Source: Saprospiraceae bacterium (GTDB taxonomy: Bacteria; Bacteroidota; Bacteroidia; Chitinophagales; Saprospiraceae). Taken from it: a stretch of 58,535 nt of DNA. The DNA lies in NCBI GenBank assembly GCA_045106885.1, contig JBGCFJ010000108.1, forward strand, positions 1 through 58,535. Reading direction: 5' to 3'. The notes under the pieces were generated by a model. It saw only the letters and a program-made list of their open reading frames with translations, did no database searches and was not told the DNA's origin. Positions 15,145 through 44,456 of this stretch are shown piece after piece. Position 1 is the first letter of the stretch, and each line of letters opens with the position of its first letter. The position numbers and the translations under genes were made by a program.

Positions 15145-15242
15145 CCCCGTTCTGCCATTTTATGCTGTAGGTAATCAATAGACTTTCAAAGTGTCCGACA
15201 CGTTAAATATTTTGTACGCTCCAAGCGTTTTGACTACTAATA

Positions 15243-26299: not shown

Positions 26300-26770
26300 A
26301 TGAAAATTTTACACAAAAAAACAAATGAATATCACGAAGCAGTTATAGAATTAGTGGAAGATGAGGATTGGGAAGTCATTGAAAAATCAGGAGATTTCAT
26401 TTTTAATTGGAGTAAAGAAAAGGACTACCTTGTTCACAAAATTCGCCTTCAATTAGAAGATAAAATACTTGGTTTAATTTCTATAGAGGATATTCCTAAA
26501 GAATATAGGTTACATATCCATTTAGTAGAAAATAGTAATGCTAATAAGGGGAGAAAGAAGATTTATGATAATATAGCAGGGTGTTTAATTGCACATACTT
26601 GTGAAATCGCTTTTGAAAAAAATTATGATGGATTTGTTTCACTAAAACCCAAAACAGAAATAGTTGAACTCTACAAAAATAAATATGGGTTCTCTGAAAT
26701 GGGACAGTTTTTATTTACAGAATTGAATAATTCAGAATCCTTAATCAAAAAATATTTGAGTAATGAGTGA
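26300..26770 (+). CDS. hypothetical protein, possibly GNAT-like fold (156 aa)
   Basis: AT-rich ORF. The segment ILGLISIED..HIHLVENSNANKGRKKIYDNIAGCLIAHTCEIAFEKNYDGFVSLKP..LYKNKYGFSEMG resembles the beta4-alpha3-beta5-alpha4 core of acetyltransferases but lacks a clean Q/RxxGxG/A motif. It overlaps the next ORF by 8 nt. Confidence 0.5.
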   Translation: MKILHKKTNEYHEAVIELVEDEDWEVIEKSGDFIFNWSKEKDYLVHKIRLQLEDKILGLISIEDIPKEYRLHIHLVENSNANKGRKKIYDNIAGCLIAHTCEIAFEKNYDGFVSLKPKTEIVELYKNKYGFSEMGQFLFTELNNSESLIKKYLSNE

Positions 26771-27287
26771 AAAAGAGAAGATATATAAAAGCTTACAAAA
26801 AGAATATACCCTAGCAGAATTAGCAGATGCGGTTATATTATCTGATGCTTCAACTAAAATGGAAGAAGAAGAATTTGTAAAATTGAGATTAGCTCGAAGA
26901 AATACTTTATCTGAGAAAGAACAACTCTTTTCTAGTCTTCTATCGCTTAAATATGAGATGAAGTTTTATTTAAATAAAACTAAATTTGAGCCTAAGAATA
27001 ATTTTGGAATTTACTTGAAAAAGTACCTTAAAATAGTAAGGAGAACACAGAAAAAATTAGCAGAGGAAATTGATATACATCCTTCTCGATTAAGTCGTAT
27101 TATCAAAGGAAAGGAGCGAGTAGGGAAATCGCTTGTCTATAGATTAGAAAGTCATTCTGGAGATTTGATTCCTGCTATCTTTTGGTGGAAAATTTTTCAA
27201 AAGGAAGTAGAACAAGAAATTGTGAATGCGATAAAAGAAAGAGAAATAGAAAAGCAATATGTTAAAAAAATAGCTTATCGAACTTGA
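26763..27287 (+). CDS. XRE/HigA-like helix-turn-helix protein (174 aa)
   Basis: The C-terminal half, LKKYLKIVRRTQKKLAEEIDIHPSRLSRIIKGKERVGKSLVYRLESHSG, matches the HigA/VapI antidote-type HTH. The start ATG lies inside ATGAGTGA, overlapping the upstream stop. Confidence 0.6.
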   Translation: MSEKEKIYKSLQKEYTLAELADAVILSDASTKMEEEEFVKLRLARRNTLSEKEQLFSSLLSLKYEMKFYLNKTKFEPKNNFGIYLKKYLKIVRRTQKKLAEEIDIHPSRLSRIIKGKERVGKSLVYRLESHSGDLIPAIFWWKIFQKEVEQEIVNAIKEREIEKQYVKKIAYRT

Positions 27288-28827: not shown

Positions 28828-28855
28828 GTTTTATGTTTATTTGTTTTGCGTAGAT

Positions 28856-29158
28856 TTATTTTGATAAGGCAACCATGCCTTTAGTTATAGCTCGTTCTAA
28901 TTTTATTTCTTCAAGAGATTTTGAAAAAAGAGCAATTAATTTATCCTTATCTATTTGATAAATTTCAGCAATGCCTTCTGTTACAATTCCCATATATCTT
29001 AAAAAAGTCAATGTCTTTTCATTCTTGGGAATCTCCAAAATAAATTCGGATTCAAATTTTAGTTTTTTAGGAGGAACAAATTGAATGAATTTATCATTTC
29101 CTTTAGATAATTTCCAATCCTTTGATTTTAAAAATGCTATGATTGTTTCTAATTTCAT
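28856..29158 (-). CDS. hypothetical protein (100 aa), downstream partner of the DUF4365-like gene
   Basis: Very AT-rich ORF starting 6 nt after the upstream stop. No recognisable motif. Confidence 0.5.
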   Translation of the reverse strand: MKLETIIAFLKSKDWKLSKGNDKFIQFVPPKKLKFESEFILEIPKNEKTLTFLRYMGIVTEGIAEIYQIDKDKLIALFSKSLEEIKLERAITKGMVALSK

Positions 29159-29164
29159 TGCTAC

Positions 29165-29698
29165 TTAAATTGTATTATTATGAAAATGATTGAACATAGT
29201 ATTGAAAAAAGTTTTACTAATTTTATTCTTAGTTGGAATTAATATTCTAGTTTTTCCTATATTTTTTGATATGTTAGAAGTGTTGTTGGGATAAAACCAG
29301 TATTTTTCGGCATTTATAATAACCTTTTTTGATGTCATTTCTATCCAAGCATCCTCAATACTCGGCAAAATTACGAGAATTAAAATGAGCGGAATTACCT
29401 CTACTTCATTTTGTCTTATGAATAAATCATTATAATTTTTGACAGGCAAATCAAAAACTACATTATCTTTTCTTCTTTTTAATGATTTTTCAGTAGTACA
29501 TTTTAACTGAATATCAAGTGCCTTCCCAGTATTCATAAAACGTACTTTTCCCATTAATTCATACCTTCTAACACTTTTAATTGTTAAATCTACTCCATTA
29601 TCTAGATTATCCTCAGCTACTTTATATCCCTCATTACTAGCTAATAGCATAATGAGGTATTTTGAAATCAATTCTTTAATTTGTTCTTCTTTCAACAT
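29165..29698 (-). CDS. DUF4365-like / PD-(D/E)xK nuclease-fold protein (177 aa)
   Basis: An N-terminal helix is followed by DNGVDLTIKSV and ALDIQLKCTT (a D...QxK core), then the hydrophobic strand VIPLILILVILP and YWFYP. This is the layout I associate with DUF4365. About 20-23% G+C in hand-counted lines. Confidence 0.5.
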   Translation of the reverse strand: MLKEEQIKELISKYLIMLLASNEGYKVAEDNLDNGVDLTIKSVRRYELMGKVRFMNTGKALDIQLKCTTEKSLKRRKDNVVFDLPVKNYNDLFIRQNEVEVIPLILILVILPSIEDAWIEMTSKKVIINAEKYWFYPNNTSNISKNIGKTRILIPTKNKISKTFFNTMFNHFHNNTI

Positions 29699-29737
29699 GT
29701 CTTCTCAAATTTAATTAAAATTTGGCAGCAATGAAAG

Positions 29738-31525
29738 TCACTTGCTTTTTTGATTTTTTATAAAATAATAATATCCTCGCCAAACCTCTGCATTTCCCAC
29801 ATTAGGCGTCTTAATTTCTAAAATAGCAGGGCGATTATTTTTTGATTTTTTGTAAAACGGAATAAGTACCTTTTTTAAAGTAGCTTCATTTTCTGCCACA
29901 AAATAGTTTAAATTATATGTTTTGGCAAGATACTTTGCACTTCGTTCTTGCTGGGCTTCAAAATAATCGGCTAATTGAGCGGTTGTATCTGGTCCTTTGA
30001 TAAATCTAAAGATATTGCCACCGCCATTATTAATTAAAATGATGCGTAAATTAGGAGAGAGGTGGTGTTGCCAAAAAGCATTAGAATCATAGAAAAAAGA
30101 AATATCTCCTGTAATAATTGTTGTTGGTAATTTAGTAATATAAGCTGCACCTGTCGCTGTAGAAGTAGAACCGTCTATCCCTGCCACGCCTCGATTAGCA
30201 TTATAAATAATGTCTTTTCTGATTTTAAATAATTGAGCATATCGAACGGGTGTACTATTCGCCAATTGTAAATTGGTGTTTTTAGGAAGTTTGGGTAGCA
30301 GAGTTTTGAAGACTTGTAAGTCTGACCATTCTGCTTTTTTTAGATATTCTTTTTTCGATTTTTGGACTTTTTTTGCTTGAATTTTCCAAGTTGCCTGATA
30401 GGTATCGGACACTTTCAAAGTGTCTGATACCTTAATTTGTACATCATCTTTTTTTATCACTAACATATCAGATACTTCCAAAGTATCAGATATGTGTGGG
30501 CGTAACTGCTCAAAAAAAGTAGTAGGTTTCATATTAATAGTTGTTGTCAAACTTTGAAACGTATCCAGATGATACTCAATTTCCCCAATATGCCAATGTA
30601 CTTTTGGTGGATGTTTTCGCAACCATAATTTAATCCGTTTAGAAATAAAAGAACCGCCAATAGTTACCAGTAAATCAGGCTGAAATTGAGAAATTTCTGA
30701 TTCTGCCACGGTACTTAATACACTATCAAAATCAGCTACAAAATTTTTATGATGAAGATTGGAAGTAATTTCTGGTAAAACGGCTACCGTAGGGTCTTGG
30801 CTAATTTTTTTTAATTGTTTATTTAAAGCAATATTCCCTCTCTTATCGAGTGGCAATAGTCCCCCTAAAATCATTTTTTTATTGGAGGATTGCCAGATAT
30901 TAACAAATGTTGATAACTGTATTGGTAACAGTCTTTTTTCAAAAGCCGCTGTATTTATTATTTTTGGTAATGGTAAATGGGTATAATCCTTAGTATCATA
31001 CAAAGGTTCTTGAAAAGGAATATTGATATGCACAGGACCACCACTTCCTTCGGTAGTTTGGTCGATTGCTTCGCAAATAATCCGATTGGCACTCCATAAG
31101 CCATCTTTATCTTTTACTTCTTGTGGTAATTCATAACTCCGTTTGACATAATTGGCAAAAACATTCCGCTGAGCAATAGATTGTCCTTCTCCTTGATGAA
31201 TCCATTCTACGGGACGGTCTGCTGTTAAGATTAATAAAGGTATTTTTTGATAAAAGGCCTCGGCAATAGCAGGCGCAAAATTTAGGGAAGCGGTTCCAGA
31301 AGTACAAGTAATGATAACAGGTTTGCGAGTTTGTTGAGCGATTCCTAAAGCAAAGAATCCTGCGACTCGTTCATCGGGAATACTGATACAATCGAATTTA
31401 CTATGTTCACCAAAAGAAATAACAAGGGGAGCGTTTCTAGAACCGGGAGAAATAATGACTTGTTCAATGCCTTTTAAAGCACAAATTTCTACTAGGTTAC
31501 GAATATGTGGCTTGTTTGAGAGCAT
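29738..31525 (-). CDS. menD: 2-succinyl-5-enolpyruvyl-6-hydroxy-3-cyclohexene-1-carboxylate synthase (MenD)
   Basis: 595 aa with ThDP-enzyme motifs SPGSRNAPL, TCTSGTA and GDISFFYDSNA..NNGGGNIF. It is adjacent to menF, menE and menC. Confidence 0.85.
   Translation of the reverse strand: MLSNKPHIRNLVEICALKGIEQVIISPGSRNAPLVISFGEHSKFDCISIPDERVAGFFALGIAQQTRKPVIITCTSGTASLNFAPAIAEAFYQKIPLLILTADRPVEWIHQGEGQSIAQRNVFANYVKRSYELPQEVKDKDGLWSANRIICEAIDQTTEGSGGPVHINIPFQEPLYDTKDYTHLPLPKIINTAAFEKRLLPIQLSTFVNIWQSSNKKMILGGLLPLDKRGNIALNKQLKKISQDPTVAVLPEITSNLHHKNFVADFDSVLSTVAESEISQFQPDLLVTIGGSFISKRIKLWLRKHPPKVHWHIGEIEYHLDTFQSLTTTINMKPTTFFEQLRPHISDTLEVSDMLVIKKDDVQIKVSDTLKVSDTYQATWKIQAKKVQKSKKEYLKKAEWSDLQVFKTLLPKLPKNTNLQLANSTPVRYAQLFKIRKDIIYNANRGVAGIDGSTSTATGAAYITKLPTTIITGDISFFYDSNAFWQHHLSPNLRIILINNGGGNIFRFIKGPDTTAQLADYFEAQQERSAKYLAKTYNLNYFVAENEATLKKVLIPFYKKSKNNRPAILEIKTPNVGNAEVWRGYYYFIKNQKSK
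30401..30494. repeat. two GTGTCGGACAC-family palindromes inside the menD reading frame
   Basis: ggtatcggacactttcaaagtgtctgatacc (30401-30431) and catatcagatacttccaaagtatcagatatg (30464-30494) are translated as SDTLEVSDMLVIKKDDVQIKVSDTLKVSDT. Confidence 0.85.
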
Positions 31526-35927: not shown

Positions 35928-36020
35928 GAATGAGTATAATTTTGTCTACTAATAAGGCATTACGGTGAAAATTGTGGGTTACTATGAAGTTCCTTTAAAG
36001 GTATTCGTTTTGTAGTCCCA

Positions 36021-36049
36021 CGTGTCGGACACTTTTGAAAGTGTCTCGA
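36021..36049. repeat. degenerate GTGTCGGACAC-family palindrome
   Basis: cgtgtcggacacttttgaaagtgtctcga. Confidence 0.7.
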
Positions 36050-42327: not shown

Positions 42328-43014
42328 ATGAAACTCACAGCCAAAGAATTATACCTAAAATTAGTAGAAGATTATAAAATCATCGGTCAAAAAGGGGTGA
42401 TTCATTTCACCTTAAAAGATTTAACCATTGCCGTAGAAACTAAAGATTCGGTAGGTAATTTATTGCAAGAGTGGTTAAAAGCGTGGCTGAAAGCTAATGA
42501 AATTGACTTCTTAGAAAACGAAAACACCCAAAGATTCCCTGATTTTTATTTAAATACTGAAAATCAAAAACAAGGTCTATTAGAAGTTAAAACATTCGAT
42601 TGGAAAAGAGGTCCAGGATTTGATTTAGCTAATTTTGATTCCTATTGCAATTCTTTATTAACTGATGCTTATAGGATAGATTCGGACTATTTAATCTTTG
42701 CTTATGAATTAAATGGAAGTGAGCTAAGTATTAAAAATGTGTGGTTAAAAAAGATATGGGAATTGGCTTGTCCAAGTGGTACCTATCCAATTAAAGTACA
42801 AGAAAAAAAGAAGATAATTTATAATTTAAGGCCATCTACTTGGTATTCCACCAGAAGTAAATTCAAGCCCTTCAATGATAAAGAAAAATTTTTGGCAGCT
42901 CTGAATAATACTCGTTATCAATATGCTCAAACTCGGTTGGATAATTCTCATTGGTTAAGAAAAGTACTACAGAATTATGAAAATCATACCGGTATTGCAC
43001 TTAATGTTAAGTGA
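42328..43014 (+). CDS. putative type II restriction endonuclease (family not recognised)
   Basis: 228 aa with a candidate PD-(D/E)xK core, FPDFYL ... LLEVKTF. It is convergent with the C5-methyltransferase, the 3' ends overlap by 31 nt, and it is AT-rich. Confidence 0.55.
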   Translation: MKLTAKELYLKLVEDYKIIGQKGVIHFTLKDLTIAVETKDSVGNLLQEWLKAWLKANEIDFLENENTQRFPDFYLNTENQKQGLLEVKTFDWKRGPGFDLANFDSYCNSLLTDAYRIDSDYLIFAYELNGSELSIKNVWLKKIWELACPSGTYPIKVQEKKKIIYNLRPSTWYSTRSKFKPFNDKEKFLAALNNTRYQYAQTRLDNSHWLRKVLQNYENHTGIALNVK

Positions 43015-44327
43015 GCTTGATTGGTATAAACTTTAGCAATTCTATCAGTGACTGCCTCCATTACAGGAACGGCTACCGTATTTCCTAAAAGGTCAAAAGC
43101 TTCTTTTTCTTTGACAGGTATTTCGTACCATTCAGGATAACCAAAAAGACGTAGCCCTTCTCGGATAGACAACCCTCTTAACCCATTACCATCAACTACC
43201 GCAATTCTAGAAACATCGGTCGCTACCAAGGTTGGCGCTATGTCGTTGGGGTCCAAAATTTTATTAATTTCAAAACTCAATTTTCCAGTAACTATATTAT
43301 AACCTTTGGGTAATTGTTCGTCAAATACTCGATATTTTTTGATACCTCCGTTCTCTGTTTCCTCTTTAACTAATTTTTTAGGATGTTCTAATTTTAAATA
43401 TCCTTTTGCTACCAAATCATCTAATAAATCCTTCAAATTTTTCTTTGGAAAAAAGGTACTAATTTGTGCTAAAGTTAAGGACATACCATCCATCCAATCT
43501 ATACCATTTTCGATGGCCCATTTTTTCTTTCTGCGCTCTTTAAACAGTTGATTCAACAGCTTCTTTTGTGTTAGACTAACTTTTCCTTTAATACCAATAT
43601 CCCAACTATGGATATTATTCTTTCCACCTCGTTTATCTTTGATAGATTTACCATACAATTCTTCAATGGAATAATTTTGCAATAACTTTCGAGTAAATTT
43701 AGTATCTCTTGTTGGCAGTCCTGATTCTAAAATTTCTTTGACAAAAGTTCGTTGAACAGTAAAATTCGTTAAATCAATTGCTTTGTCTTTTGTACCAATA
43801 ATAAAGACTCTTTTTCTAGATTGTGGCAAAGCAAAATTAATGGAGTCTAATAATTGATAACTTACCTTATAGCCTAATTCTTCTAATTTAAATAATATCG
43901 TTTTTAATGTGTGGCCTATTTTATCTTTTTTATTGGCTAAATCGTGTTTGATTAAGCCCTCTACATTTTCAAGAATAAACCCATAAGGTTGTTTAGCTGC
44001 TAAAATTCGTTCAATTTCAAAAAATAAAGTCCCTCTAGTATCTTGAAAACCAAAGCGTTTACCACTTGCGCTAAAAGGTTGACAAGGAAAACCGCCTAAC
44101 AAAAAATCAAAATCTGGAATGTCCTCATTTTTTACTTGAAATATATCTCCTACAAAATGTTCGCCTTTAAAATTTTCTTTTAACGTTTTAAGCGCATAAG
44201 GCTTTATTTCCGATGTCATTACACATTCAGTATCAAAGCCATGTTTTTTGAAAGCATTTTGAAAACCTAATTTCATGCCTCCCATTCCTGCAAATAAATC
44301 AATAAATCTTACTTTCTTCTTATCCAT
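42984..44327 (-). CDS. DNA (cytosine-5)-methyltransferase
   Basis: Motifs: I FIDLFAGMGG, IV GGFPCQPFS, VI ILENVEGL, VIII QSRKRVFIIG, X GNTVAVPV. A long variable region lies between VIII and IX. The ATG at 44327 is preferred over the TTG at 44354. Confidence 0.9.
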   Translation of the reverse strand: MDKKKVRFIDLFAGMGGMKLGFQNAFKKHGFDTECVMTSEIKPYALKTLKENFKGEHFVGDIFQVKNEDIPDFDFLLGGFPCQPFSASGKRFGFQDTRGTLFFEIERILAAKQPYGFILENVEGLIKHDLANKKDKIGHTLKTILFKLEELGYKVSYQLLDSINFALPQSRKRVFIIGTKDKAIDLTNFTVQRTFVKEILESGLPTRDTKFTRKLLQNYSIEELYGKSIKDKRGGKNNIHSWDIGIKGKVSLTQKKLLNQLFKERRKKKWAIENGIDWMDGMSLTLAQISTFFPKKNLKDLLDDLVAKGYLKLEHPKKLVKEETENGGIKKYRVFDEQLPKGYNIVTGKLSFEINKILDPNDIAPTLVATDVSRIAVVDGNGLRGLSIREGLRLFGYPEWYEIPVKEKEAFDLLGNTVAVPVMEAVTDRIAKVYTNQAHLTLSAIPV

Positions 44328-44456
44328 TCTTTGATGCTGTTTAGTATTTCTCAATTTATCGCTAAAATTGTCGTCTTAGAGCAAATATGCAAAAATACCT
44401 ATAAAAATAAAAAATAGTAAGTAGATTAAAACAAATATTTTTTATTTAGGGAAAAC

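Follow-up and report, generated by a model that had tools for sequence, protein, structure and literature searches.

A two-gene DUF4365 nuclease cassette of a Saprospiraceae bacterium as a candidate domain-reduced variant of the phage defence candidate PDC-M02

PDC-M02 is a two-gene 'phage defence candidate' of PADLOC-DB v2.0.0, comprising M02A and M02B and originating from a guilt-by-embedding screen (Payne et al., bioRxiv 10.1101/2024.01.29.577857). Here, we compare it with a cassette of two genes that lies between menD and a kinase gene in a 58,535-nucleotide (nt) stretch of DNA from a Saprospiraceae bacterium (Bacteroidota), hereafter called the window; the first gene, A, encodes 177 residues and the second, B, 100 residues. 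The nuclease domain family to which A is assigned below is known from further systems. In SPARDA, the DREN domain is a non-specific DNase that is inert while monomeric and becomes active once a partner scaffold has assembled it into a D2 tetramer (PMC12205087), and SPARDA serves here as a precedent for a nuclease that is switched on by partner-driven oligomerisation and acts by abortive infection. EAT16, a DUF4365 protein and toxin of an extracellular contractile injection system, kills E. coli, and mutation of its motif removes the toxicity (PMC11297309). Divona is an integron-cassette system to which its source paper attributes anti-phage defence (bioRxiv 10.1101/2024.07.02.601686). We give a little more than even credence to reading the Saprospiraceae cassette as a mobile and minimal nuclease module of two genes, a domain-reduced variant of PDC-M02 with B as its control subunit.

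As in PDC-M02, the cassette possesses a full-length M02A homologue and its genes are co-directional, in the order A then B, and tightly coupled, with a gap of 6 nt here. However, of M02B its B protein has neither the middle domain (~95-293) nor the C-terminal one (~294-376), falling short of the ~370-400 residues of the full-length protein, and its flanks, menD and an APH-family kinase gene, do not embed it among defence genes. PADLOC would probably not call this B. With SPARDA, the cassette shares the nuclease domain family (DUF4365 equating to DREN) and the D...QxK residues, and SPARDA provides the best structural match to A. In contrast, A is the nuclease domain alone, without APAZ, its partner is an unrelated 100-residue protein, and the guide-RNA logic of SPARDA is not inferable for the cassette; neither flanking gene encodes an Argonaute, the rest of the window being screened only by a top-25 family summary. 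EAT16 and Divona likewise contain a DUF4365 domain with a DxGxD...QxK signature, but they are single multi-domain proteins without a B-like partner, EAT16 having an extra C-terminal domain and Divona being fused to an Mrr/RecB-like nuclease and a crr6 domain. Lastly, type II toxin-antitoxin pairs with the toxin gene first, such as HicAB and HigBA, resemble the cassette as small, tightly coupled two-gene operons with the putative toxin upstream. They differ in that B resembles the toxin HicA (non-significantly) and not an antitoxin, without its catalytic histidine, that B has no helix-turn-helix (HTH), ribbon-helix-helix or other antitoxin DNA-binding domain, and that A is a DNase-fold protein and not an mRNA interferase.

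Gene A matches the Pfam family DUF4365 (PF14280) over residues 16-162 (52.7 bits for a cut-off of 24.3, E 6.2e-14) and the PADLOC PDC-M02A profile PDLC04290 over residues 1-172 (profile positions 1-163 out of 170, E 4.8e-33); in total, it matches 23 M02A sub-profiles of PADLOC-DB. The AlphaFold2 models of A and B were computed with deeper alignments built from database proteins, and that of A reaches a predicted local distance difference test score (pLDDT) of 88.9 and a predicted template-modelling score of 0.85. Foldseek analysis of this model against the PDB reports SPARDA DREN-APAZ chains as the nine top matches (E 3.6e-7 to 8.6e-5), followed by the Hjc resolvase (E 1.7e-4), EcoRV and I-Ssp6803I. 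The template-modelling scores (TM) normalised to the query are only ~0.5, and the model exhibits a restriction-endonuclease-like fold. A preliminary description, made from the DNA letters alone, had already proposed that A is a DUF4365 / restriction-endonuclease-like protein and had named a lack of structural likeness to PD-(D/E)xK nucleases as a possible refutation; the Pfam score and the Foldseek likeness both agree with its proposal.

The two halves of the DUF4365 catalytic signature, D33-N-G35-V-D37 and Q64-L-K66, are both present in A. Among the 77 distinct homologues of A, residues D37, Q64 and K66 are invariant (77/77), and D33 is kept in 75. The motifs GVDLTI, LDIQLKCTT, VIPLILILVILP and YWFYP that had been quoted at the outset are all found in A, and the D...QxK arrangement then proposed as its core equals the catalytic core that has been mutated experimentally in other members of the family: Q62 and K64 are needed for activity in TmuRE (PMC10810196), the catalytic residues D41, Q60 and K62 were mutated in NbaSPARDA, where Q60 and K62 are likewise needed and D41A abolishes nuclease activity (PMC12205087), and the DxGxD...QxK motif of EAT16 corresponds to D42, D46, Q66 and K68, three of these four being each required (PMC11297309). 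From its sequence and its model, A is a member of the DREN/DUF4365-type PD-(D/E)xK nuclease family with an intact DxGxD...QxK site. The VIPLILILVILP segment forms a core β-strand in the model (E104-111) and not a membrane helix. A weak holin match falls under the threshold. Sequence-profile searches of the PDB with A, short B or full-length B did not return anything meaningful.

The B protein returns no match in Pfam, NCBIfam or PHROGs, nor in the PDB by sequence. Its match with the PADLOC PDC-M02B profiles is weak (E 0.015, positions 20-89 of 391, ~18% coverage), and B and two other short partners each return such a weak match independently, all falling at ~16-100 of the ~380-residue PDC-M02B and in the same register. 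A hidden Markov model (HMM) made only from 43 full-length B proteins, drawn from a survey of 80 genome loci, matches residues 4-80 of the window B at HMM positions 16-92 (E 3.3e-7), and hhalign analysis of the short-B family against 31 full-length B proteins reports a probability of 97.1% (E 6.1e-11). Conversely, screening 1.84 billion representatives exhaustively by HMMER with the short-B profile retrieves 109 proteins, of which 64 have 152 residues or fewer and 34 have 351-413 residues; in all of the latter the matched part is the N-terminus (34/34), with library-wide E values down to 5e-10. The AlphaFold2 model of B (pLDDT 91.1) displays an α-β-β-β-α-α-α topology. Among viral models, it best matches the N-terminus of gp37 (381 residues) from the Leptospira phage LE1 (E 2e-4, TM 0.66, root-mean-square deviation 1.9 Å), which supports the assignment of B to the N-terminal domain of PDC-M02B because gp37 is itself a full-length B according to the HMM. 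Homology of B to the N-terminal ~90 residues (M02B ~16-97) of the ~380-residue PDC-M02B is well supported. The preliminary description had taken the partner for a protein without recognisable motif and the module for an orphan; the first view gives way to the HMM and hhalign matches of B, and the second to the assignment of A to the candidate system PDC-M02. Pfam analysis of the 31 full-length B proteins reports scattered single weak matches, and no domain can be assigned to their middle (M) or C-terminal (C) part.

As for the fold of B, its matches in the PDB are not significant. HicA toxins come out best (E 0.3, range 0.1-0.5, probability 0.8-0.9), with TM over 47-64 residues of 0.56-0.59 when normalised to HicA but of 0.35-0.40 when B is the reference, and residues 1-67 of the B model have an α-β-β-β-α topology. 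B does not contain any histidine and is therefore not a HicA-type RNase; with this feature and the weak fold likeness, B as a HicA toxin was dismissed. Nor does B qualify as a type II antitoxin, since it returns no match in Pfam, NCBIfam, PHROGs or PDB sequences and no significant antitoxin fold match. Both A and B have an isoelectric point (pI) of 9.4.

In the 80 genome loci surveyed, A is nearly always followed by a variant of B, with a typical A-B overlap of 4 nt outside the window. Three classes of partner can be distinguished: full-length B proteins of ~340-420 residues composed of N, M and C domains; proteins of ~180-193 residues from Oscillatoriales that comprise the N and C domains only (HMM positions 1-92 and 294-376); and proteins of ~94-112 residues, such as the window B, that are restricted to the N domain. 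No M or C domain was found among the window open reading frames (ORFs) of at least 40 residues, nor elsewhere at the short-B loci. In a neighbour-joining tree of A, computed without bootstrap, the N-only partners fall into at least three separate clades, namely one in Bacteroidota to which the window belongs, one formed by a second Saprospiraceae pair and one of Chamaesiphon, and the N-only A clade extends down to A identities of ~34%. The exhaustive search reports short stand-alone forms of B in 64 representative clusters. Because of these three partner classes, of the at least three N-only clades and of fusions to other C-terminal modules, the N-domain is the constant module of B retained in every variant, and we infer that it is the part contacting A.

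The B N-domain was encountered in several other arrangements: joined to a C-terminal multi-pass membrane region (P0161), joined to an unrelated C-terminal domain of ~170 residues (P0158, P0215, P0226), preceded by an N-terminal extension (P0224, P0169), or with a Cys-rich N-terminus (P0145). Natural fusions of A with B were sought among the intermediate-length matches and none was found, the extra parts being other domains. The short B proteins of L173 and L174 were not counted as N-only, as they are probably frameshift splits (109+259 and 102+260 residues) on low-coverage long-read contigs. A longer β1-β2 hairpin, the tetramer interface in SPARDA, was considered as a feature of the A proteins with N-only partners and discarded, since the same spacing occurs in Bacteroidota A proteins with a full-length B. 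Two contigs of one Saprospiraceae bin (R4_Bin_Bin_85_1; L026 and L027) carry two diverged pairs of A and N-only B, one directly after ileS and the other after an ORF of 1232 residues without a Pfam match.

Both ORFs of the cassette are genuine genes under purifying selection and not chance ORFs, because the ratio of non-synonymous to synonymous substitution rates against L001, the closest relative (92% identical), is 0.11 for A and 0.18 for B (0.04 for the kinase), and because the length of B is held at 99-100 residues among homologues down to 56% identity. The ORF listing exactly reproduces the sizes and spacings given earlier for the locus (177 and 100 residues; 6, 39 and 28 nt): both genes are on the minus strand, B follows A after 6 nt, 39 nt separate the menD stop (29738) from the A start codon, and 28 nt separate the B stop from the start (28827) of the kinase gene. 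The latter encodes a 360-residue APH-family phosphotransferase (Pfam APH, E 1e-46). A drop in G+C content at the cassette had also been reported, from hand counts, as 20-23% against about 45% in menD. The direction is right and the size is not: the cassette has 26.5% G+C (A 26.4%, B 26.1%), menD 35.0% and the kinase gene 36.9%. The window mean is 35.8% with a standard deviation of 3.5% (843-nt windows), and a value down to that of the cassette is reached in only 0.4% of them.

The nearest public sequence, from an uncultured Saprospiraceae metagenome-assembled genome, has the same menF-menD-A-B-kinase order. Whether the pair is conserved as a unit had been raised as a question at the outset, and it is indeed found in two different genomic contexts: menD-A-B-kinase in the window, L001-4, L008 and L012, and amino-acid permease-A-B in L005-7, L009 and the P0005 contig. 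Other Bacteroidota N-only pairs lie directly after ileS, thrS or a lipid-synthesis gene. The comparison of the menD-kinase junction among relatives, proposed in the preliminary description, reveals that it is not filled in all of them, menD being directly followed by the kinase gene in L092, L096 and L093 with spacers of ~30, ~41 and ~145 nt, respectively. Occupied and empty junctions interleave when relatives are ranked by the identity of their flanks to the window: the junction is occupied in L001 (kinase identity 94%), empty in L092 (93%), occupied in L008 (~85%), and empty in L096 (81%) and L093 (76%). The L001 cassette is flanked by the 10-nt direct repeat AAAAGCAAAT, of which the empty L092 site has one copy, and AAACAAATAAAC, just 5' of the kinase ATG in the window, corresponds to AAAGCAAATAAAC in the empty L092 site. 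The two insertion contexts, these interleaved empty sites, the low G+C and the two copies in one metagenome-assembled genome (L026 and L027) speak for mobility of the pair. Such a distribution is compatible with gain or with precise loss alike. The cassette diverges in step with its flanks, which suggests an old insertion that the L092 lineage lost later, possibly by an event between the 10-nt direct repeats. The ~145-nt spacer of the empty L093 junction (L093:1547-1691) consists of nested palindromic repeats (GTAAGACGGATTCGTAATCCGTC...) and represents a different small repeat element.

In all three menD-context lineages (the window, L001 and L008), the menD-A spacer carries a TAAATTTG box 15 nt 5' of the A start codon. 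L005, L031 and L033 also have the pattern TAnnTTTG no more than 45 nt from the start of A, for a background of 0.78 per kb per strand. We take the TAAATTTG box to fit the Bacteroidota -7 promoter consensus, so that this spacer would be a candidate cassette-borne promoter of the Bacteroidota type. At neither junction of the cassette does the minus strand have a predicted intrinsic terminator. The cassette appears to have its own promoter and to be passive between menD and the kinase gene; it is without link to menaquinone synthesis. A sigma-70 promoter scan was set aside as uninformative (22 matches for 24.6 expected); its model does not suit Bacteroidota. A 25-nt imperfect inverted repeat that exactly brackets A (29153-29177 and 29712-29736) is probably due to chance: it is 76% complementary with a 10-nt perfect core (TTTCATTGCT/AGCAATGAAA), and is one of 20 inverted-repeat pairs in this AT-rich DNA.

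The canonical relatives, i.e. the pairs with a full-length B, are located close to defence genes and on mobile elements. The L010 pair adjoins genes for an MmeI-type methyltransferase, T5orf172 and AAA_15/21, the L173 locus adjoins MmeI and SIR2 genes, and the neighbours of nine canonical loci include type I restriction-modification (RM), PD-Lambda-1, PD-Lambda-5_B and PDC-S08. Canonical pairs are also present on the temperate phage LE1 (gp38/gp37), in two M. abscessus prophages, where they are genes 1 and 2 at the left end, and on a conjugative Pusillibacter megaplasmid. A tblastn search of phages with the window A did not return any hit, LE1 and the mycobacterial prophages being found only with more divergent A and B queries. 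PDC-M02 is widespread, its range covering Bacteroidota, Cyanobacteria, Proteobacteria, Chloroflexota, Bacillota (an Oscillospiraceae plasmid), Actinomycetota (Streptomyces and the M. abscessus prophages) and the Leptospira phage LE1. Homologues confined to housekeeping contexts had been named in advance as an argument against a defence role; the neighbourhood survey instead places canonical pairs by RM and other defence genes, in phages and on a plasmid. The window itself contains only one other set of defence-type genes, a type II RM pair ~13 kb away, and the cassette is not embedded among defence genes. This RM pair (42328-44354) is convergent, has 31-33% G+C and encodes an NgoBV-like endonuclease (228 residues, plus strand) and a C-5 cytosine methyltransferase (456 residues, minus strand).

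If we assume that the cassette is a domain-reduced PDC-M02 controlled by B, it could operate as follows. In the resting cell, A would be kept inactive, either sequestered by B or monomeric like the SPARDA DREN domain, and the N-domain of B would bind A and set its activity. Phage infection, loss of the cassette or a drop in the level of B would act as the trigger, upon which A would self-assemble and cut DNA non-specifically, resulting in death or dormancy by way of abortive infection or post-segregational killing. For the N-only B, we lean somewhat towards an inhibitor, making a toxin-antitoxin-like abortive module, over an activating scaffold. A natural variant would fit with A as the dangerous gene. 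In the A homologue of L005 (L005:7462-7991), a 4-nt deletion inside the catalytic DVQ[LK]C removes LK and shifts the frame, splitting A into ORFs of 82 and 110 residues, while the downstream 99-residue partner is intact. The broken A is identical in L005, L006 and L007, which stem from two JGI samples and one NCBI metagenome-assembled genome. A defence or toxin-antitoxin function is a candidate assignment for the cassette.

Several points weigh against this reading. The frameshift shared by L005-L007 is a single evolutionary event. When isolated, the DREN domain of SPARDA is monomeric and inactive (PMC12205087), so that what A requires may be activation and not inhibition. B shares the basic pI of A and is devoid of any known antitoxin or DNA-binding domain, and the weak likeness of its model to HicA and to double-stranded-RNA-binding domains (dsRBD) would be more in keeping with a sensor of nucleic acids or an activator. 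Missing from the short form are the M and C domains, presumably the trigger sensors of the canonical system. In Bacteroidota, the short-B loci lie behind housekeeping genes (ileS, thrS, menD, a permease), and the neighbour families with defence matches number 44 for short loci versus 209 for canonical ones, a crude and qualitative comparison made without statistical control, as the counts are of families and not of proteins per locus. Lastly, the 145 PDC systems are candidates without experiments according to their source paper (bioRxiv 10.1101/2024.01.29.577857), and the string 'PDC-M02' is absent from searchable papers.

Among the alternatives, a pure addiction module, with A as the toxic nuclease and B as its labile proteic antitoxin, maintained by selfish post-segregational killing without protection from phages, is unlikely in our view, yet it accommodates much of the above. 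The pair is small, tightly coupled and toxin-first with its own promoter-like box, it stands alone behind housekeeping genes and outside defence islands, one metagenome-assembled genome holds two copies, the toxin is the broken gene and the partner the intact one in L005-L007, and a DUF4365 protein is toxic in E. coli. However, B is unlike any antitoxin family, being basic and not acidic, and the full-length relatives are associated with RM systems, prophages and plasmids, as defence genes are. Addiction is moreover not exclusive with abortive defence, and differs from the domain-reduced PDC-M02 proposed above mainly in the trigger. A second alternative, which we regard as more doubtful still, makes the N-domain of B a dsRBD/HicA-like nucleic-acid sensor that nucleates an active oligomer of A on nucleic acid of foreign origin, much as DREN is assembled by the Argonaute filament of SPARDA, with A inert by itself and the module not toxic at rest. 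The topology of B residues 1-67, whose best fold matches are HicA-type (dsRBD-like), the basic character of B and the conservation of the N-domain as the module kept everywhere would all fit such an activator, but the fold matches are not significant and extend over only ~50-60 residues, B has no histidine for a HicA-type RNase, and an activator role does not explain why A and not B is the inactivated gene in L005-L007. Finally, a decaying PDC-M02 remnant without present function, or a domesticated Holliday-junction-resolvase-like repair enzyme with an accessory factor, might be suggested by a B that is only a quarter of the canonical partner, by the Hjc match of A and by the biosynthetic gene string around the cassette, but is very improbable given the purifying selection on both genes, the B length of 99-100 residues kept to 56% identity in two contexts, the 64 representative clusters of stand-alone short forms, the span of the N-only A clade to ~34% identity, and the patchy presence at the junction and low G+C, which speak against a core housekeeping role.

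With the cassette taken as a PDC-M02 variant under the control of B, its nuclease family and the candidate system have both been catalogued before, and the interest lies in the modular dissection of B and the recurrence of its N-only form. Nucleic-acid detection already makes use of DREN/DUF4365 nucleases, which are the effectors in SPARDA. Because the large subunit is modular and has repeatedly been cut down to a domain of 100 residues that remains associated with the nuclease, this pair of 277 residues in total offers an experimental entry to how a DREN nuclease is held off or switched on outside Argonaute systems. The defence-finder profiles now in use miss the reduced forms, and surveys consequently undercount them. 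A tentative extension, which we consider possible and far from established, is that the N-domain of B is a previously unrecognised self-sufficient regulator of DREN nucleases, and that A and B form a new minimal toxin-antitoxin/abortive family, missed by all present libraries, that has repeatedly arisen by shedding sensor domains and is spreading behind essential genes. If the N-domain were such a regulator, free N-domain-like proteins of phages could act as decoys silencing the nuclease. One protein of this kind is BFVD A0A482MK90 (101 residues) from the Nodularia phage vB_NspS-kac65v162, which Foldseek matches with E 0.03 and TM 0.57 over 80 columns at 9% identity; a tblastn search of Nodularia phages reports no A homologue. 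A0A482MK90 might be a decoy or anti-defence protein, or a coincidental fold likeness. The coordinates of the cassette, its predicted catalytic codons and its junctions are collected in Table 1.

Table 1. Position of the cassette genes, of the predicted catalytic codons of A and of the flanking spacers in the window.
Feature	Coordinates	Strand	Description
Gene A	29165..29698	(-)	177 aa; predicted DUF4365/DREN-type PD-(D/E)xK nuclease of the PDC-M02A family
Gene B	28856..29158	(-)	100 aa; stand-alone version of the PDC-M02B N-terminal domain
D33-N-G35-V-D37 codons	29588..29602	(-)	DxGxD half of the DUF4365 catalytic signature
Q64-L-K66 codons	29501..29509	(-)	QxK half of the catalytic signature
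menD-A spacer	29699..29737	(-)	39 nt; TAAATTTG box at 29706-29713
B-kinase spacer	28828..28855	(-)	28 nt; right-hand cassette junction

Three further features of the window are worth recording. Between 18723 and 19713, an intergenic region of ~1 kb with ~26-27% G+C separates divergent genes for large proteins with signal-peptide-like N-termini; it contains no ORF of at least 60 residues and returns no Rfam match. Repetitive extragenic palindrome (REP)-like sequences similar to ACGTGTCGGACACTTT occur 8 times for 0.32 expected, among others at 30400-30432 within menD, 1923-1939, 15188-15203 and 36020-36035. The copy inside menD forms a 15-bp hairpin (14 Watson-Crick pairs and one G-T pair), and the protein is repetitive at this place ('KVSDT/EVSDM'). 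Lastly, a second AT-rich pair (28-30% G+C) on the plus strand (26300-27287) comprises an ORF of 156 residues without a family match that overlaps by 8 nt with the gene of a 174-residue HTH_3 protein. The pair is kept in L001 and L002 and is not found downstream of the kinase gene in L092. The HTH_3 protein weakly matches the HigA-family antitoxins (NCBIfam E 3e-6, under the cut-off) and the PHROG 'plasmid antitoxin with HTH domain' (E 1e-7), and the two genes may constitute a toxin-first toxin-antitoxin pair.

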